NCBI GenBank assembly: GCA_965220385.1 | Contig: OZ244825.1 | Location: 212,769-276,768, forward strand | Origin: Candidatus Poribacteria bacterium | Lineage (GTDB): Bacteria > Poribacteria > WGA-4E > PCPOR2b | DNA: 64,000 bases | Reading direction: 5' to 3' | Shown here: positions 3,932-50,631 of the stretch, piece by piece | Position numbering within the stretch: position 1 is the stretch's first letter | Layout of the letters: every line of letters starts with the position of its first letter | Notes under the pieces: generated by a model | The model's input: only the letters and a program-made list of their open reading frames with translations | Database searches by the model: none | Told to the model about the DNA's origin: nothing | Program-made: the position numbers and the translations under genes

Positions 3932-4132
3932 TAGGACTTACGCAGTTAAATGGTCAAATCCCTGTAGTTCGGGATTCATCGCCGCCGTTCCCAACGCCCG
4001 ATGAATCCCCGATGAATCGGGATTAAGAAACGGGCAACTACAGTAGGGTTTCAGGTTTGTAGTAGGGCGATTTATCGCCCGTCGTGACGCGCAATGAATT
4101 GCGCTGCTACAAACTGAACTGCGTAACTCCTA
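3932..4132. mobile_element. TA-flanked MITE (family B) with REP hairpins
   Basis: Ends TAGGACTTACGCAGTT / AACTGCGTAACTCCTA (15/16 inverted match); internal hairpins; related copies at 5245-5401 and 33605-33806. Confidence 0.75.
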
Positions 4133-9480: not shown

Positions 9481-10635
9481 ATGGCACAGATAGAACGCAG
9501 TAGACTTGGACATTACGTGGCACTCGCTGTAATTGCGGTGGCAGTGCTGGTCTATCTCACCCCGATCTACTGGATTGTCGCAACATCCCTAAAATCGCCC
9601 AGTGATATTATTGCGCAGGTCCCCCAATTCCTGTTTCGGGTCACCCTTGAGCATTACCAGAAACTGATGCCCGATGCAGTGCCCGGGCTCACATACGTCT
9701 TCATTGCAGAAGCGTTGATCGGTATACTCGCCTGTTTCTTACCCGTCCGAAACATGGGGATTGCCCGTCGTTTTGCATTTCTGTGGAACGGCTTGCTGAT
9801 TTTAACCTGTCTTTACGCGCTTGCGACAACGATCAACTACAATTTCCTGATGCTGTCGATTTATACGATCGTCGTCTTCCTGCTGATTTCTCCCCACAGA
9901 TCAACCGAAGCGAGACGGGTTCGCCTGTCCCTCGTCGGTGCTAGTGTATTAGCAATCGTTGCCATCTGCACACTGTTCGCGCACGGAGGATCGAAATATT
10001 TCCACCAACTGCTGAATAGCATCATCATTGGGTTTGGCAGCACCCTGCTCGCCGTTGGGTTTGGGACACTGTCTGCCTATGCGTTCTCACGCTTCAAGGT
10101 CGCAGGCAAGGAGGATCTCCTCTTCTTCATCCTCAGCACACGGATGCTTCCTCCCGTCGTCGTTGTCATCCCAATCTACCTAATGTACAGCGCACTCGGA
10201 CTGCGTGACACCCACCTCGGACTCATCCTGCTCTACACCACTTTCAACGTCTCCTTCGCAGTTTGGCTGATGAAAGGCTTCATCGACGAAATCCCGAAAG
10301 AGTACGAAGACGCCGCCCTTGTTGATGGGTATACCCGCTTTCAAACCTTCGTCAAAGTTGTACTCCCCCAATCTGTGACAGGGATCGCTGCAACAGCCGT
10401 TTTCTGTCTAATCACCGCGTGGAACGAGTTTGCCTTTGCCCTTGTGTTGACCGAAGTTGGCGGCAGGGCGGTAACCGCGCCACCCTCAATTACCAGTGCG
10501 ATCGGATCTAGCGGCATTGATTGGGGCAAGATTGCGGCTGCAACCTTCGTCTTCCTCTTGCCTGTCGCGATTTTTACTTTCCTGATGCGAGGGCACCTCT
10601 TGCGTGGCGTTACATTTGGTGCAGTGAAAAAGTAG
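9481..10635 (+). CDS. Sugar ABC transporter permease with extra hydrophobic insertion
   Basis: EAA loop EDAALVDG.TRFQ.F; about 105 extra hydrophobic residues after TLEHY. Confidence 0.9.
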   Translation: MAQIERSRLGHYVALAVIAVAVLVYLTPIYWIVATSLKSPSDIIAQVPQFLFRVTLEHYQKLMPDAVPGLTYVFIAEALIGILACFLPVRNMGIARRFAFLWNGLLILTCLYALATTINYNFLMLSIYTIVVFLLISPHRSTEARRVRLSLVGASVLAIVAICTLFAHGGSKYFHQLLNSIIIGFGSTLLAVGFGTLSAYAFSRFKVAGKEDLLFFILSTRMLPPVVVVIPIYLMYSALGLRDTHLGLILLYTTFNVSFAVWLMKGFIDEIPKEYEDAALVDGYTRFQTFVKVVLPQSVTGIAATAVFCLITAWNEFAFALVLTEVGGRAVTAPPSITSAIGSSGIDWGKIAAATFVFLLPVAIFTFLMRGHLLRGVTFGAVKK

Positions 10636-10758
10636 AAATGCATTGGCGGACTTGCTGGAGGACGTGTTGACATTTATCGAATTTTGCTGACAAGCCCCCT
10701 TACTTTTAAGGAGGGGAGGTGGTCCGCCAAAATACGTTAATAGGTGAGATAAATAGGG

Positions 10759-10787
10759 TTGATTTTGAAGGTTGAGTCTGGTATAAT
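10759..10787 (+). promoter_or_regulatory. Sigma70-type promoter
   Basis: TTGATT-17-TATAAT with TGn extension; no ORF of 60 aa or more downstream on + before 11693. Confidence 0.6.
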
Positions 10788-10794
10788 CGCTTTA

Positions 10795-11050
10795 AGAAAT
10801 GGATGCACCGCTGAAAATGATTAGCAGGGGTAAAGTCCGCAGTCGTTTTCCCACCCTTCGATGGGAGTATGTTGTGGTGTTTTCCATCTTACCAAAGTTG
10901 CCCTTCGGGGCAGTGGATAGGGCGTTGTCCACTGGAGGAGACACCGTAAGATCCCGATAAATCGGGACAAGTGTCGTTGATACCACAATTCGACCTCCTA
11001 TTGACAATGGGTGAGTATCCCCAACCCTTTAGGATGTGGGAGTACGTCAA
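10795..11050 (+). mobile_element. Non-autonomous IS200/IS605-like element, TnpB omega-RNA-like right end
   Basis: Ends with hairpin TCCCCAACCCTTTAGGATGTGGGA then GTACGTCAA; upstream nested stems GGAGG/CCTCC and GACAC/GTGTC. Left boundary uncertain. Confidence 0.5.
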
Positions 11051-11073
11051 AACATAATATGGTGGCTCATGTA

Positions 11074-11156
11074 AAAACGGAGTGCAATTACGATTAAGGA
11101 ATACAGTGGAGAGCGGGGCAAGATGCCCCGCCTACGGGTTCTATTGCACACTTTCT
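11074..11156. mobile_element. 83-bp TA-flanked MITE-like element with intact GTAG-REP (11113-11135)
   Basis: TA at 11072 and 11157; partial TIR ...GTGCAAT / ATTGCAC...; REP GTAGGCGGGGCATCTTGCCCCGC on minus strand. Confidence 0.55.
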
Positions 11157-11374
11157 TAGCATGAGCCAAATAAGAAAAATAGGCTGCTCTGGGCTTTTTT
11201 AGCGAAAAAGGTAACACGAAAAAGGGAAAAGTTACACAGGTTACGGCATACGGAATTCCGCTGAATTCCCGATAAATTGTCCGATAAATCGAGGCCAGGG
11301 GGACAGGCGGTATTTCGATACGCTCAACTACAGGTTGTCTAGCAACTTGCGTTAATTATTAGACTGATATGTCA

Positions 11375-11671
11375 ATTTTAATCAATTGAGCCAGCCTTGA
11401 TGCGGTCTCCGGTGTGTCATTGGCGGAGAATTAGGCACTTGGTTATATGTGACGCATCAGTGTTAATTGGACATCGGTCTACCTGTTAGGCAATCGGGGT
11501 TTGTGGTCGTTCCATTGCGTTGGATTGTTGAACGCACCTTTTTTCGGTTCGGTTAGTTTCGCCGATTGACTATGGATTATGAACGTTCTGCTGAGACGGC
11601 TGAGGCAATGGTGTACATTGCTTCCATTTACTTGATGCGAAATCGTATCAAATGACTTTTCAAACAGGCTC
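11375..11671 (+). pseudogene. IS5-family transposase 3' remnant with right end
   Basis: One frame reads [41 protein letters not shown] with internal stops; terminal TTTTCAAACAGGCTC followed by TTA. Confidence 0.8.
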
Positions 11672-11692
11672 TTAAGATAAGGAGTATTAACA

Positions 11693-12670
11693 ATGTTAAA
11701 GTTTCAGATGGCTCTGATTGCCCTCTTGATCGGTTGCGTTGCCCTCATCTCCTGCGACCAGCTAGTAGTAGAAACATTAATACCAGCGCCACCAGAGGAT
11801 GATATGCCGGACGACATGATGGTTGGCTTGCCAATGTACATCGCAATGTACACTTCGTGGACGACGAATGTTACCTATCCCGAACCTGTAGGTACCGGTA
11901 ACGTGCACGGCGAAGGGGCTCGTACTGTTTACATCAACGACGTCGGAGCTATGGCGTTGGAAGATGAAAACCTGACCGCTTACCCCGCTGGGACTATAAT
12001 TGTCAAAGAAATCATGGACGACGCGAACACGTTTGTTCAGAAAGTCGCGACAATGAAGAAGACGGACGATTCGCGCCATAACGGGTGGACATACAAGAAA
12101 TATGCTCGCACCGATGAAAACACTGACTATATGCAGGTCGGAGGAGATGGACTCCCAGACGCAGCCGAAGGGTGTCATGCCTGCCACGCTGCAGCCCCCG
12201 TGGACAGTGTCTTCGTCGATTTCTCTATGGACGGCGAAATGCCAACTGACGGCGAAATGCCAACTGATGACACAATGGCAGCAGCGTACACCTCATGGCT
12301 GAGTGCTACACTTCCCACCGCTATCGGTTCCGGTGCTGCACACGGTCAGAACGCTCGCACCATCTATATCAACGATATCGGAGTGATGGCATTGCAGGCT
12401 GGGGAGACCACTTTCCCTGTCGGGACTATAGTGTACAAGGATATCATGGATGCCACGAACACCTCTGTTGTGTTAGTCGAGAGGATGGAAAAAACAGACG
12501 ATCCGATGTATGCTACAGAGAACGGATGGCTATACAACGAGGGTAACAGTCAAGCTGGGTGTCATGGCTGCCACGCGACCGCCGGTGTGGACCCCATCCC
12601 GGGCACAGACGCTGTCTTCACTGTCCCGGCCCTGATGGCTAGCCTCGCTGCCGCTGGCGCGGGTCAATAG
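11693..12670 (+). CDS. Lipoprotein with two tandem cytochrome P460/c'-beta family heme domains
   Basis: Lipobox LISC; two homologous domains, each with H...YIN, P.GT...K(E/D), M.K, GW, CxxCH (CHACH, CHGCH), D.VF. Confidence 0.8.
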   Translation: MLKFQMALIALLIGCVALISCDQLVVETLIPAPPEDDMPDDMMVGLPMYIAMYTSWTTNVTYPEPVGTGNVHGEGARTVYINDVGAMALEDENLTAYPAGTIIVKEIMDDANTFVQKVATMKKTDDSRHNGWTYKKYARTDENTDYMQVGGDGLPDAAEGCHACHAAAPVDSVFVDFSMDGEMPTDGEMPTDDTMAAAYTSWLSATLPTAIGSGAAHGQNARTIYINDIGVMALQAGETTFPVGTIVYKDIMDATNTSVVLVERMEKTDDPMYATENGWLYNEGNSQAGCHGCHATAGVDPIPGTDAVFTVPALMASLAAAGAGQ

Positions 12671-12823
12671 GACCAACGCGTAGCCTGAAAAACTGAAAAA
12701 TTTCTAGGGATACATGCATTGATCGGTGGTACCTAGCATCTCCTGATACCTCCTAAGAGTGCCGATCACAACGTTTTCGCAATTTGAGACAGCGAAGTAT
12801 CGTTTTGCTGCTTAAAAAAATTG

Positions 12824-12852
12824 TTGAAAATTAATGCGAAGTGTGATATATT
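12824..12852 (+). promoter_or_regulatory. Sigma70-type promoter upstream of the MDDG lipoprotein
   Basis: TTGAAA-17-TATATT with TGn. Confidence 0.5.
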
Positions 12853-13023
12853 CTTAGAGAAGTTATGTAGAATATGAATTTGGCAGGTGCCTATCTTTTG
12901 CCGGTTGCGCTTTTCACTGCAACTATCTACCAATAGATGCGTACCTTGTCATTACCTTGCGACGCAGCTTGCAGGTTTCCAACGTTTGCTGCGAAACACA
13001 TTTTAAAATAAGGAGTATTAACA

Positions 13024-13428
13024 ATGTTAAAATTTCAGATGGCTCTGATGTTCCTTCTAATCGGTTGTGTCGCGGTCATGGGTTGTAGCGACTCCGCCAT
13101 GGTGGATATGATGGGCGGTATGATGGACGACGACGACGACGATATGGACGGCATGGATGACGGCATGGATGACGGCATGGACGGCATGGATGACGGCATG
13201 GACGGCATGGATGACGGCATGGACGGCATGGATGACGGCATGGACGGCATGGATGACGGCATGGACGACGGCATGGACGACGGCATGGACGACGGCATGG
13301 ACGGCATGGACGACGGCATGGACGACGGCATGGACGACGGCATGGACGACGGCATGGACGACGGCATGGACGACGGCATGGACGACGGCATGGACGACGG
13401 CATGGACGGCATGGACGACAGTCAGTAA
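13024..13428 (+). CDS. Met/Asp/Gly tandem-repeat lipoprotein (hypothetical)
   Basis: SD AAGGAG, lipobox VMGC, leader nearly identical to that of the 11693 gene; remainder is MDDG/MDG repeats. Confidence 0.75.
   Translation: MLKFQMALMFLLIGCVAVMGCSDSAMVDMMGGMMDDDDDDMDGMDDGMDDGMDGMDDGMDGMDDGMDGMDDGMDGMDDGMDDGMDDGMDDGMDGMDDGMDDGMDDGMDDGMDDGMDDGMDDGMDDGMDGMDDSQ
13144..13419 (+). repeat. Coding tandem repeat of 9- and 12-bp units
   Basis: 7x ATGGACGGC, 6x ATGGATGACGGC, 11x ATGGACGACGGC, 1 partial unit. Confidence 0.95.
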
Positions 13429-33806: not shown

Positions 33807-33826
33807 CTCGTATAAGGGGATCAAAG

Positions 33827-34525
33827 ATGAACCGCAAAAAAACAGTACTCGTACTCTCCCTTTTGGCAGCTATCGGTATCATTGCTTTTTTCGTCTATGA
33901 GTTTTCTACTGCGGGTAAGGTTACGGTTAGGAGGGTGCCCCCTGAAAGATATACCGGTCCTCAGACGGTTGAAGCCCTGATGGCAGCGTTTGATGAGAAG
34001 TTTGACCGTCCCTATCTTGACAGGAAGATTGATCGGCAGTACCCCCGCGCGGAATGGCTTGCGATGTGTCTTGATAGAGGAGCCGTGTTTGGGGATTTCG
34101 GTGACTACTCTGATTTGATGAGCCAGCGATGGCTTTTGTTAAGTTTGGAGGAGAAGGGGGATTGGGTCAAAGGAGCTAGAGGCGTACCAGCGACGGATGA
34201 TTGGGAGACATTCAAGGACGCTTATATTGATAGGATGGTTTGGGAACACCAGAAAATTTATGAGGCGCGGCAGATTGACCCGGAAGTGTTCGGTGGGCTG
34301 TTTACCGGTCCTGATAAACGCATCTACCTACCGGGGCGTGCGAATCGCGTCTATGTTAAAAGAGGCAAGAAATCGGCATTTTTTCATGGTGCGCCACTTA
34401 CTGAGCTACAGCAGGTCATGATAACACTGTTAGGAATACACCCGAGAGGCTATGAAATCATCTATATTGATGAAAATGGAACTATCCTCTCCAAGCGTCC
34501 ACGACCCATCCTGCTCCCGATGTGA
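33827..34525 (+). CDS. Membrane-anchored hypothetical protein, paralog of 35626-37107
   Basis: N-terminal TM; shared blocks ERYTGPQTVEALM, YPRAEWLA, FGGLFTGPDKR.YLPG. Confidence 0.8.
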   Translation: MNRKKTVLVLSLLAAIGIIAFFVYEFSTAGKVTVRRVPPERYTGPQTVEALMAAFDEKFDRPYLDRKIDRQYPRAEWLAMCLDRGAVFGDFGDYSDLMSQRWLLLSLEEKGDWVKGARGVPATDDWETFKDAYIDRMVWEHQKIYEARQIDPEVFGGLFTGPDKRIYLPGRANRVYVKRGKKSAFFHGAPLTELQQVMITLLGIHPRGYEIIYIDENGTILSKRPRPILLPM

Positions 34526-35556: not shown

Positions 35557-35625
35557 TCGTTCCTAAATTGGAAATTCGGGTGCCTTCAGGGCACCCGAAT
35601 TCTAACCTCATATAGGAAATAAAAG

Positions 35626-37107
35626 ATGAAACGCAAAAGAACAGTGCTAGCACTTTTCCTTTTGGCAACTATCGGTATCATCGCCTTTTTCGTCTTCCGA
35701 GTAAACCGACCAATCTTCCCTTTTCCCGCGTCTGGAGCTGGAGACTTTGTGGATGGAGGTGGACTCCACACGAGTCATCAAAAAGAATTTGAAGATCCGT
35801 GGCAGGCTTGGGTGGAAAAACAGACCGCCGAAACAGTGAAAAATATAGCAGCAGCGTACAAGAAACAGAAACAATCTCCAATGAATGAAAGTCAAATAGC
35901 AGAATGGCGCATCAATATTCATACCAACATGACAGAGTACGCCGAAAAGATGAAAGAGAAGTATTCTTCTCCTGCTGCGATGGAGGCAGGGGGAGATGGA
36001 TTATCCACTAAGGGGAAACTTACGGTTAGGAAAGTGCCCCTTGAAAGATATACCGGACCTCAGACGGTTGAAGCCCTGATGGAAGCATTTGATGCGTATG
36101 ACCGCAGCGGATATACAAATCCCCTAGATGCCTTAGCGGATGAGAAATATCCGCGTGCCGAATGGCTTGCGACGCTGCTTGATAAAGGAGTCATATTTGG
36201 GGATTATGGCGATTACTCTCTTTTTATGAACGAGCGAATAAATTTGGTAAGTTTTGAGCGTGATGAAGACTGGCGGCGATGGGGCGGGGGAAAATTCGAC
36301 GATTGGGAAACATTTAAGGAAGATTATATTGATAGGAGGGTTTGGGAAGAACAGCAAATCGCTGCTGAACGGCAAAGTGATCCAAGCGTGTTCGGTGGAC
36401 TATTTACCGGACCTGATAAGCGCACCTACCTCCCGGGACGTCCAAATCGCGTCTACGTTCAAAGAGAAGGGCGCGGGGCATTTTTTCATGGGGCACCACT
36501 TACTGATAAACAGCAGTGGGATATTATGTTGCAAGGGAAGCACCCGGAAGGGTATGAAATCATCTATGTCGATGAAAATGGGACTATTCTCTCCGAGCCA
36601 CCGCCACCCATCCCACCCCCGACGGGGGAAGAACGACGACAGTTGGAGGCGTGGCTGAAAAGAGGGGAAAGGCAACAGGCAGCCGACGTGCCAGACCAAA
36701 CTTTCGAGGATTTGGACGGTTGGGATAGCGGAGGCCAGGAGGACAGTCCTTCGGGGAACGAAACTGTGAGAGCAGAAGCCCAAGCCGCTCAGAAACGGTT
36801 TGAGCAATCACAAGCGGAGGCTTTAGAACGTGCTACCAAGAACGATACCGAAATAGGGGCAGCACTCGAAAAACAGTTGACACCCGAACTGCCCACAGCA
36901 GCGGGTACCGAAACGCAACTGAGTGAAAGATTCTCCCCTGAACGGTTGGAAAAAGCGCGAGAGGTCTTGGAACGGTATGGACCTGAGGAAGGGATGCGTC
37001 GTCTCAGAGAAGATGATCCCGAAGTTGCAGCGCAGGTTGAACGGACCCGTCGGGATCGGAACCCGGCTGAGAGCGAAACGGATGAACCTGAAAATCCAAC
37101 GCGGTAA
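35626..37107 (+). CDS. Membrane-anchored hypothetical protein, long paralog of 33827-34525
   Basis: Same core with an N-terminal insert and a Pro/acidic C-terminal extension. Confidence 0.8.
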   Translation: MKRKRTVLALFLLATIGIIAFFVFRVNRPIFPFPASGAGDFVDGGGLHTSHQKEFEDPWQAWVEKQTAETVKNIAAAYKKQKQSPMNESQIAEWRINIHTNMTEYAEKMKEKYSSPAAMEAGGDGLSTKGKLTVRKVPLERYTGPQTVEALMEAFDAYDRSGYTNPLDALADEKYPRAEWLATLLDKGVIFGDYGDYSLFMNERINLVSFERDEDWRRWGGGKFDDWETFKEDYIDRRVWEEQQIAAERQSDPSVFGGLFTGPDKRTYLPGRPNRVYVQREGRGAFFHGAPLTDKQQWDIMLQGKHPEGYEIIYVDENGTILSEPPPPIPPPTGEERRQLEAWLKRGERQQAADVPDQTFEDLDGWDSGGQEDSPSGNETVRAEAQAAQKRFEQSQAEALERATKNDTEIGAALEKQLTPELPTAAGTETQLSERFSPERLEKAREVLERYGPEEGMRRLREDDPEVAAQVERTRRDRNPAESETDEPENPTR

Positions 37108-42441: not shown

Positions 42442-42599
42442 AATTTCGTCTCCTTGATTATACAGTGTCGATAATTTTTCTATTAATCCAAGTTTTTGCT
42501 TCTCCAAAGTTGAGGTGTTCTATATAACTCAGGTTCCTCGATATTCAAAATCCAATCTATTTTCTGTTGTGGTGCAAGTTACCTGTCTTTCGCTCCAGA

Positions 42600-42713
42600 T
42601 GAAGATTAATTTATTAATTGGGTAATTTCCGAGCGATGTCCGGTGCGGTTGCAAACCGCACCTACCGGGTCTGGGGGAAGATAGAATTACCCGTTTAATT
42701 TTTTAAAACTCCA
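42600..42713. mobile_element. Family A MITE (inverted copy of 584-697) inserted into a CGCTCCAGAGGAGCG repeat
   Basis: 114 bp; the intact target repeat is at 42753-42767. Confidence 0.75.
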
Positions 42714-49124: not shown

Positions 49125-50397
49125 AGCAAGTTTAAGTATACATTTTGAGTTTTTACAGAAGGGTGTGCTGGAGCTGCCCTGATTCATGAATCCCCATCAA
49201 AGATTGGAATCGTGAAAACGGTAATCTATCCAGCCACCCGATGACAGTTTGACAGAGTTGAGAGAAACTGTTGAAAAAATAACTCCTGTTAATTTGATCT
49301 CGCATCAGATGCCACAATCGCTCAATGAGATTCAGATGTGGACTATAAGTTGGCATCGGGACTAAACGCAATCGGTCTTTGTGGTGAATCAGGAAATCGT
49401 CAAGTTTTGCCGTTGTATGACTCGATGCATTATCACGGACGACAAACAGCAACTCATCGGGATACATATCCATTAGGTTTTGCCAATGTGTTTTGATCTG
49501 AAGATGGGTTTTATTGGCATAGATTTCATACAAGCCGGCCCCCGAAGGATACTCTAAGGAGCCGATGAGGTATTTCCGCCGGTTTTTGCCGGGGGTGTTG
49601 ACCTTATATTCAGTGCCTTGCTGTCGATAAATACGTCCACTGTTGGGACACCAAGACACGTTAGCTTCATCAAAGAAAAACAGGCGAGCCGTCTTTTTTT
49701 CGGTCTCAAGTGCAGACAGACCTAAACGCCGAAGTTGGGTATCCGGGAGAATCAACCGAGTCGCCTCACTCGTCAACTCTCCCGTTTTGGCAAACACCTC
49801 AACTCCGTCAGTTGAGTCCGTTTCGCTTGATATTCTGGATCCGGACTGCCAACACGGAGTTTGCTTCGACCGGTGCGGTAGCCTACCCGTCGTAAAGCCA
49901 GATGGATCGCTGGCGGTGTGACCGAAATCTCGTGATACGCTTGGAGATAAACTCTTATCAGCTCAAGCGTCCATTGTCGAGAGTCCGTCTGAAGTTTTTC
50001 GTATTGATTCGGCGTTTGCTCAAGAAGTCGATTCCAGTCCGATTTGCTAAAGTGTGTGATTTTACCACGACGCCCCGGAGGACGCTTAGGCATCAACGCA
50101 TCTAAACCAGAGCTATTGTATGTATGAATATAAGTCCTAACACTCTCATCAGAGAGATTAAACATCTTGGCGAGTTTCGACACGGGCATACGTTCAATGC
50201 CACTAAGTTTGATGATTAGTAAACGCCTATACCATTTCGGGTGTGTCGCTTCACAAAGCGCAACATCAAGACGTTCAACAGCCAAGGAATCGTTAAGTTC
50301 TGCGTAAATCATCAATTAAGACACTCCTTGTGAGATAGATTTACACACAGTATAACGCAAAACTCTATAAATTGGTGATTTATTATTTAATATTGCT
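49125..50397 (-). mobile_element. IS630-family insertion sequence, two ORFs (49773-50315 HTH; 49153-49797 DDE)
   Basis: FFDE, VVRDNASSH, SPHLNLIERLW; TA-flanked ends TAAGCAAGTTT.. and ..AATATTGCTTA. Confidence 0.9.
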
Positions 50398-50399
50398 TA

Positions 50400-50631
50400 A
50401 GCAATATTGAATAATAAACTTTCGATTCTCAGTAGGTGTCGCACCCGTAGGGGCGGGGTTTCCCCGCCCGCCATCGATGTAAAATGTGCATATTTAATAT
50501 TGAAACTTGCTTATGAGAGCAATATTGAATAATAAACTTTCGATTCTCAGTAGGTGTCGCACCCGTAGGGGCGGGGTTTCCCCGCCCGCCATCGATGTAA
50601 AATGTGCATATTTAATATTGAAACTTGCTTA
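50400..50631. repeat. Two identical 114-bp copies (50400-50513, 50518-50631) of an IS630-cognate MITE with REP cargo
   Basis: Direct comparison of both copies; ends match the adjacent IS630 ends. Confidence 0.9.

Follow-up and report, generated by a model that had tools for sequence, protein, structure and literature searches.

What is the conspicuous folded, promoter-driven and ORF-free stretch that lies upstream of a cytochrome-P460 lipoprotein gene in a Candidatus Poribacteria genome? The initial annotation of the 64-kb piece of DNA analyzed here (hereafter, the window) proposed an orphan omega-RNA-like structured RNA, either a stand-alone guide RNA usable in trans or a decayed non-autonomous element. 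In TnpB omega-RNAs, the scaffold ends at the right-end boundary of the transposon and the guide corresponds to the flanking DNA. We looked at the locus itself, at the same site in related genomes and at the ends of tnpB-bearing elements.

Results

A promoter and a stable predicted fold upstream of the P460 gene

The promoter described in the initial annotation (TTGATT-17-TGn-TATAAT) is present, with TTGATT at 10759-10764, a 17-nt spacer, TG at 10779-10780 and TATAAT at 10782-10787, which amounts to 10 of 12 consensus matches. Promoter-like sites were not more numerous than expected by chance in the region 10400-11900 (1 found versus 2.1 expected); the significance of this site rests on its homology to the left-end promoter of the transposons described below. 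From the promoter to 11050, the longest ORFs comprise 53-71 aa, in keeping with the claim of about 260 nt without a substantial ORF. Strain SNPs showed no third-position bias in the + strand frame 10799-10960, the only frame checked, and pseudo-ORF translations of the RNA region had no match in viral contigs, GTDB genomes or 5.8 billion predicted proteins. A small protein (the 53-aa ORF at 10799) was rejected, as SNPs had no codon periodicity in its frame and it had no homologs.

The nested stems that had been described could all be located, namely GGAGG (10934-10938) with CCTCC (10994-10998) and GACAC (10940-10944) with GTGTC (10971-10975), the latter around the CCCGAT hairpin. The claimed end, GTACGTCAA at 11042-11050, was also found, together with its terminal hairpin. 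The + strand fold of 10794-11063 reached -93.3 kcal/mol (z = -3.20), a value that none of 200 shuffled sequences equalled; the z value for the - strand was -1.67. We infer that the RNA starts about 7 nt past the -10 box and that its 3' limit is the right-end boundary of the transposon. No Rfam model matched the whole window at gathering threshold, and the three matches obtained in the region 10600-11700 with E up to 10 were at chance level and irrelevant. No tRNA or tmRNA was found. A riboswitch, RNase P or a 6S-like RNA was discarded as no model matched and the segment turned out to be an insertion. The features of the locus are listed in Table 1.

Table 1. Features of the insertion and its surroundings, in window coordinates
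Feature	Positions	Strand	Basis or remark
Intergenic gap, 1057 nt			Between the ABC-transporter permease gene (9481-10635) and the lipoprotein gene with two cytochrome-P460 domains (11693-12670)
Native P460 -35 box TTGACA	10667-10672	+	Matches TTGAAC/TTGAAG in relatives
Target / transposon-adjacent motif TTTA	10673-10676	+	Directly 5' of the element
Whole element, 374-bp tnpB-less IS200/IS605-family derivative (PATE-like)	10677-11050	+	Empty-site comparison, end likeness
Left-end subterminal hairpin CCCCCTTA-CTTT-TAAGGAGGG	10695-10715	+	Aligns with tnpB-element left ends; DNA fold
Element-borne sigma-70-type promoter	10759-10787	+	Aligns with tnpB-element left-end promoter consensus ttgaatttgtaggtaaaatatggtata
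Predicted structured RNA scaffold	10794-11050	+	Fold z -3.2 (+) versus -1.67 (-); strain SNPs
Stretch resembling tnpB-element 5' UTR (weak similarity)	10846-10862	+	TTTTCCCACCCTTCGAT versus CTTCCCACACCCTATCGAA
REP-like hairpin CCCGATAAATCGGG	10953-10966	+	Nested in GACAC/GTGTC stem; genome-wide family
Right end: linker, terminal hairpin (about 11018-11041), AGTACGTCAA	11004-11050	+	nhmmer, alignment, covariance model
Guide-equivalent flank AACATAATATGGT, then start of foreign repeat	11051-11070	+	Empty-site comparison
High-copy hairpin repeat (MITE/REP-like), ends GGCTCATG...CATGAGCC	11064-11170		Outside the element; interrupts the old -10 box

The element is inserted between the -35 and -10 boxes of the P460 promoter

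Relatives found through the P460 protein keep the gene order of the window (binding protein, two permeases, P460, acidic repeat protein, ATPase), with an intergenic gap of only 317-518 nt and without the RNA. The RNA was also missing from all 80 metagenome loci found through the upstream permease, the closest of which (L006, 92% at the amino acid level) has different downstream genes. An intact promoter, TTGAAC-ATTTACACGGAATATGG-TATATT, is present in relatives L144, L082, L084 and L085. The empty site in related genomes reads TTGAACATTTA/CACGGAATATGGTATATT (the slash marking the insertion point), compared with TTGACATTTA/374 bp/AACATAATATGGT in the window. For L144, the permease gene of which shares 88% identity with that of the window, the comparison is between TTGAACATTTA/CACGGAATATGG and TTGACATTTA/element/AACATAATATGG, with no target-site duplication. 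Around the insertion point L144 has ...CGTTGAACATTTA/CACGGAATATGGTATATTCAC..., with TTGAAC as -35 and TATATT as -10 box, and the window has ...TGTTGACATTTA/10677-11050/AACATAATATGGT. Strains lacking the repeat that starts at 11064 continue with ATATTGACAACAAGTTTGTGTAGAATATGA, thus matching the relatives past the -10 box.

The empty-site comparison thus indicates an insertion of 374 bp directly 3' of TTTA, with no duplication, within the -35/-10 spacer of the P460 promoter, separating the native -35 box from its -10 box. The L144 empty site contains TTTA, and the site of L084 that is empty where L082 carries a tnpB element reads ...GATTTA/. In most of the 47 full-length tnpB copies that were aligned, the left end is likewise preceded by TTA, the sequence being variable further upstream. 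Taken with the ends described below, these comparisons show the identity, boundaries and target of the element. Its start is 82 nt upstream of the one initially claimed (10759), as indicated by both the L144 empty site and the left-end alignment; these two also overruled a left boundary at about 10774 derived from a TGGTATAWT repeat. The alternative put forward in the initial annotation, a decayed non-autonomous element, is in line with this clean insertion after TTTA and with the resemblance of the left part to the left end of the family.

The right end is that of a tnpB family of Poribacteria

Relative L082 has a tnpB nearby. About 35 nt past the stop codon, a hairpin (CCCAAGC-ATTCAT-GCTTGGG) is followed by AGTACGTCAA, and this right end has a 14-mer in common with the 3' end of the window element, in the same orientation. 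A search of GTDB genomes with the L082 TnpB yielded 56 tnpB loci, all from Candidatus Poribacteria, which were assigned by Pfam OrfB_IS605 plus Cas12f1-like_TNB. All but one of them end with ...ATCCCAAnnCTTTAGnnTTGGGAGTACGTCAA, followed by unrelated flanks; in the same 55 of 56 loci ...AAGAATCCCAAnnCTTTAGnnTTGGGAGTACGTCAA is found 47-76 nt past the tnpB stop codon, with an unrelated flank from the next base on. In the 55 loci that bear the terminus, the flank is variable directly past ...GGGAGTACGTCAA (TCAA). The lone locus without it, L105, has a foreign repeat inserted there. The terminus of these 55 loci and of L082 recurs at 11017-11050 of the window, which is almost identical to the right-end variant of L102 (ATCCCCGCCCTTTAGGGTGTGGGAGTACGTCAA) and near-identical to the right end of L139.

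When an nhmmer profile of 47 full-length tnpB elements was run against the whole window, the best match was 11004-11054 (E = 5e-5). The homology to tnpB-associated right ends that had been predicted is thus found at 11004-11050, and tnpB loci with homologous 3' ends, which the initial annotation proposed to look for in the genome of the window, exist in Poribacteria genomes. By this likeness, 11004-11050 corresponds to the 3' end of an omega-RNA scaffold. In L141, which has the same right end, a Y1_Tnp gene lies directly upstream of tnpB, which indicates that the family is of the IS605 type. This IS200/IS605 tnpB family is abundant in Candidatus Poribacteria, which are uncultivated sponge symbionts. 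It is greatly expanded in some of the genomes, with more than 25 loci in OZ242335.1 (loci L086-L141 are from OZ242335.1 and others). In viral contigs, the pattern ATTCGAC...GGGAGTACGTCAA gave two chance matches only, both within coding regions. A literature search retrieved no paper mentioning Poribacteria together with TnpB.

A left-end match colinear with the right end, and a divergent interior

The sole other nhmmer match was 10669-10792, on the same strand as the right end and colinear with it; its E-value was 14 for the whole window and 0.17 in an 800-nt region, and it is not significant alone. The left-end alignment covers TTA, hairpin and promoter, the same layout being found in L088, L102, L130 and others. 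The left hairpin aligns with CCCCCATCCTTTAGGGTGGGG of these three loci, equidistant from TTA, and had a multi-copy depth in run X15 (10695-10715). Direct alignment of the left ends gave, in addition, a short 5' UTR match, TTCCCACCCTTCGAT. Both end hairpins of the window element are imperfect compared with those of active copies.

A covariance model (R1) of 23 tnpB-linked 170-nt 3' ends was run on both strands of the whole 64-kb window with the filters off. The best match, 10896-11050 on the + strand, ended at the right-end boundary with 14.6 bits (E about 0.01), a score carried by the last ~50 nt, compared with 177-208 bits for true tnpB-linked copies. The covariance search that had been suggested as a check thus agrees with the proposal as to the position of the 3' end, but its score stays far below the 75-208 bits of real copies. 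Convincing alignment with tnpB-linked omega-RNAs is limited to the last ~50 nt. When the interior (10858-11003) was aligned globally with the omega-RNA scaffold, the similarity was not significant (z = 0.9), and no homolog of these ~150 nt was detectable in Rfam or in tnpB elements. A consensus fold was obtained for the tnpB 3' region; some of its pairs are compensatory, and a long-range GACG/GAUG...CGUC pairing is predicted. A GAUG...CGUC pairing is possible in the window RNA. We also considered the possibility that the interior was a nested MITE bounded by GTTGTGGT/ACCACAAT; this was rejected since a diverged relative shares sequence across that boundary.

Another tnpB-less copy, with full left end, promoter and right end, was observed at L123:4716-5203 (Poribacteria genome OZ242335.1). 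Its 3' part (L123:5016-5203) scores 75.5 bits with R1, over all 170 positions, and its stem A is fully compensated (CAGGGTGGC...GCCACCCTG). The window element resembles this copy in having the left-end type TTA/ACAAAAAACCTTTAGG..., the hairpin, the promoter, the right end and no ORF; unlike it, it lacks a full match to the tnpB-linked model.

tnpB and tnpA are absent from the window

Pfam scans of 54 of the 55 non-overlapping window ORFs of at least 110 aa, and of the repeat-protein ORF 13024-13428, which overlaps the 55th, disclosed neither tnpB nor tnpA. tblastn with Poribacteria TnpB gave no match in the window, not even TnpB remnants. The absence of tnpB reported earlier therefore holds for the window. 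In run X5, which contains the window sequence at 100%, no contig was at least 80% similar to a tnpB element. The Y1 transposase gene of the family was seen in another genome (L141). Since the window element has no genes but a guide-scaffold right end, any use of it needs TnpA and TnpB in trans.

The element contains and adjoins other repeats, into one of which the proposed guide runs

The CCCGAT hairpin is indeed present in the GACAC/GTGTC stem, as initially described, but it is one of the 7 window copies of a REP-like repeat that occurs genome-wide. The palindrome, CCCGATnnATCGGG, is found at 4008, 5290, 8310, 8337, 10953, 21658 and 33681 (0.01 copies expected), often as part of a longer unit (for instance CCGATGAATCCCCGATGAATCGGGACAGGCGGG). 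In some strains, the REP-like hairpin is followed at 10966 by a longer repeat. In other Poribacteria genomes, this hairpin is inserted in the tnpB right ends of L095, L097, L104, L108 and L119-L125.

Depth was measured from public-run contigs that contain the window sequence. The depth of 10790-11062 equalled that of the flanks in four DNA runs, indicating that the element is single-copy. By contrast with the flanks, 11064-11170 had a 10-50x higher depth, and its edges, at 11063/11064 and 11166-11170, are break points of contigs from many different contexts. The core of this repeat, GCGGGGCAAGATGCCCCGCCTACGGGTTC, is also contained in another repeat, at L105:3683-3958. The latter is ~270 bp long and ends in inverted repeats (TAGGGTCATTTA...TAAATGACCCTA); it is inserted, with duplication of a 9-bp target (TTGGGAGTA), in the right end of a tnpB element, and its end TCTAATTCACCATAAATGACCC joins window position 10738 in a contig of run X15. 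Further multi-copy segments lie upstream of the P460 gene, at 11214-11290 and 11359-11672. The depth of 11500-11675 was 1000-2900 in metatranscriptome contigs, which means that this repeat either reaches a very high level in RNA or is part of many transcripts.

As to the guide, 11051-11063 corresponds to the promoter spacer CACGGAATATGGT of the empty site, and in strains without the 11064 repeat the flank continues with ATATTGACAACAAG..., which is the -10 box. As the repeat begins at 11064, the guide proposed in the initial annotation enters foreign DNA after 13 nt: these first nucleotides stand, as old promoter spacer, and the remainder belongs to the high-copy repeat. The guide-equivalent flank had no second match within the 64-kb window. 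In the reconstructed empty site, TTTA is directly followed by the guide-equivalent sequence, and the predicted target of a guide would be TTTA + AACATAATATGGTATATT, the window's own variant being ...GGTGGCTCAT.

Strain variation, RNA contigs and diverged relatives

Related strains in other runs differ from the window at 17 SNP sites within 10794-11063. Thirteen of these are at paired positions of the minimum-energy fold, with pairs kept at 10 for the + strand versus 3 for the - strand. Among transitions at paired sites, 10 of 11 keep the + strand pair (58% expected; P ~0.02); no double compensatory change was found among the strain SNPs. In one diverged strain, the permease gene contains 28 differences in its final 236 coding nt, all at third-codon positions, versus only 4 differences plus one 1-nt insertion in 10794-10966. 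For this strain pair, the divergence is thus ~2% in 10794-10966 compared with ~35% at neighbouring third-codon positions. The low divergence and the kept pairs suggest a constraint on the + strand RNA; the low divergence could also be due to recombination between strains rather than to selection.

RNA evidence consists of assembled metatranscriptome contigs, and these cover the upstream permease gene as well. At contig ends in other runs, the same right-end hairpin was found joined to diverged copies of the interior (...CGATTCGACACCTTAAAGGAACGGGTAAAA/ and ...GCACAATTCGACACACCAATCGGTGACGGA/; CACAATTCGACCTCCTATTGACAATGGGTGAGT in the window), and a 99-nt contig with a depth of ~216 in one RNA library matched 10891-10930 at 87%. 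In the source sample, the genome of the window had a depth of 150 (run X1) and 116 (X3). The same sample contained a 17-kb contig with a tnpB-less omega-like 3' end (depth 182 in X1 and 127 in X3) and a second tnpB clade (142 in X1 and 66 in X3) with a UUCG-capped hairpin after AAAGTATC, which is reminiscent in sequence of the window's CAAAGTTGCCCTTCGGGGC. This second clade (zinc-finger NRNYTCTCG, UUCG-capped hairpin A) was absent from the best 120 protein matches, all of which were clade 1, and none was found in viral contigs or among the Poribacteria loci gathered.

Discussion

A probable gene-less transposon derivative with an omega-RNA-type end

The conspicuous folded stretch is explained as a transposon derivative. 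Probably, 10677-11050 is a non-autonomous derivative of a tnpB-bearing IS200/IS605 family mobilized by Y1 TnpA, with an omega-RNA-type end. This is a known kind of element (PATE-like) rather than a new RNA class. A link that we did not encounter in the literature searched is that Poribacteria carry large tnpB families together with gene-less copies that have guide-RNA ends, one of which landed inside a promoter and has probably replaced it.

Drawing on established IS200/IS605 and TnpB biology, we propose that the left-end promoter would transcribe the element into a ~257-nt folded RNA, the 3' part of which would be the omega-RNA scaffold end. Read-through past the boundary would add a guide matching the flanking DNA. 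Loaded with this RNA, a TnpB produced at another locus of the genome could cut the vacated TTTA + AACATAATATGG... site, so that excision by TnpA, followed by cleavage by TnpB and recombination, would restore the element and favour its retention. This role in trans is deduced from that biology and, if it takes place, would be an example from nature of a guide that is encoded apart from its nuclease. The element promoter probably also drives the downstream P460 genes, because the insertion split their native promoter. Weighing against the transposon-derivative explanation as a whole are the depth, which indicates a single copy, atypical of an element that is spreading actively, the confinement of the convincing omega-RNA alignment to the last ~50 nt, the left-end match that is not significant alone, and the lack in run X5 of a contig at least 80% similar to the tnpB element.

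Other interpretations of the element

The RNA might also have been co-opted by the host, the element promoter having replaced the split promoter of the P460 and acidic-lipoprotein genes and the RNA being an mRNA 5' leader or a by-product. We regard this as possible, if doubtful. The element separates the -35 from the -10 box of a promoter found intact in relatives, its own promoter is co-directional with the P460 gene, the -10 remnant is broken further by the 11064 repeat, the sequence is conserved across strains, and no clear cognate tnpB was seen in the runs with the window strain. Yet, ~640 nt of other repeats separate 11050 from the gene start at 11693; they include stable hairpins that may stop transcription and may hold other promoters, and nothing links the fold to regulation, no Rfam riboswitch having matched. 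Should TnpB not use the RNA, its strong conservation would speak for the promoter and leader of a transposon having been co-opted by the host. That the element is instead a dead fragment without present function, its fold resulting from the end hairpins and inserted palindromic repeats, appears unlikely to us. This would account for its single copy, for the imperfect left and right hairpins, for the nested REP-like hairpin and for the further insertion tolerated at 10966 in some strains. It fits poorly with the ~2% divergence found where nearby third-codon positions differ by ~35% in the same strain pair, with the 10 of 11 transitions that keep + strand pairs (P ~0.02), or with the diverged relatives of the interior found elsewhere, one at high depth in an RNA library.

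Selection may have kept a domesticated element, the interior scaffold of which evolved without coding constraint. The product would be a stand-alone guide or regulator acting, for instance, with a single diverged TnpB-like protein of the same genome or, without TnpB, in the control of the P460 operon. We consider this rather improbable; if true, the diverged and highly expressed relatives seen in sponge metatranscriptomes would be a new orphan family of transposon-derived RNAs in Poribacteria. Last, the segment could be a new structured RNA of independent origin, namely a small regulatory RNA or a riboswitch, resembling a transposon end by chance, which would explain why its interior has no homolog in Rfam, in tnpB elements or, as pseudo-ORFs, among 5.8 billion proteins. 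This is very improbable: the 3' 47 nt match the transposon profile with E = 5e-5, the left part is colinear, and the segment is absent from relatives as one block with transposon-type boundaries. Boundary and end homology thus largely refute such an origin.

Comparison with known systems

HEARO, the IscB omega-RNA (Rfam RF02033), has its guide at the 5' end and is located upstream of iscB. The predicted window RNA shares with it the character of a large transposon-borne scaffold of the guide-RNA type but, unlike it, has no Rfam match. Meers et al. (bioRxiv 10.1101/2023.03.14.532601) describe PATEs (palindrome-associated transposable elements), which are gene-less IS200/IS605 derivatives and "often encode omega-RNAs" for use in trans. 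Like them, the window element is gene-less, has ends that resemble those of full-length members and is inserted at the family target without duplication. Unlike them, it is single-copy, its ~150-nt interior is not recognisable as the parental scaffold, its site is the spacer of a promoter, and a REP-like hairpin is nested in it.

The TnpB omega-RNA, or right-end RNA of IS605-family elements, is exemplified by that of ISDra2 (Karvelis et al., 2021, PMC8612924). As in omega-RNAs of the ISDra2 type, the predicted scaffold of the window element ends at the right-end boundary and its guide would be the flanking DNA, with a terminal hairpin followed by a short conserved tail; its possible GAUG...CGUC pairing resembles the GACG/GAUG...CGUC pairing predicted in tnpB-linked copies. 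In contrast to these omega-RNAs, it does not overlap a tnpB reading frame and its covariance score is only 14.6 bits. Compared with the local omega consensus, hairpin D is missing and the interior topology is different. TldRs are nuclease-dead TnpB repressors with guide RNAs (PMC10705468). Their guide RNAs are transposon-derived and can act at promoters, and the guide-equivalent sequence of the window similarly overlies a -10 region. However, TldR guides adjoin a tldR gene, which is not the case here, and the promoter overlap merely reflects the insertion site.

Other features of the window

The region 11693-13428 encodes a cytochrome-P460 lipoprotein with two domains and an acidic lipoprotein of 134 aa that consists of D-G-M-D repeats. 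Both genes lie inside a sugar ABC-transporter operon, between the permeases and a MalK-type ATPase, an arrangement conserved in relatives, and they have a duplicated promoter, leader and signal-peptide start (11672-11748 versus 13003-13079, 84%). An IS630-like transposase at 49153-50631 is split into a helix-turn-helix ORF (49773-50315) and a DDE_3 ORF (49153-49797), and beside it are two identical 114-nt units (50400-50513 and 50518-50631) with starts 118 nt apart. Paralogous genes at 33815-34525 and 35614-37107 are 73-88% identical over several blocks; they have no Pfam match and both start with a signal-peptide-like segment. Finally, an 81-nt inverted repeat pair (618-698 and 42599-42679), 89% complementary and 42 kb apart, is probably another dispersed repeat family.
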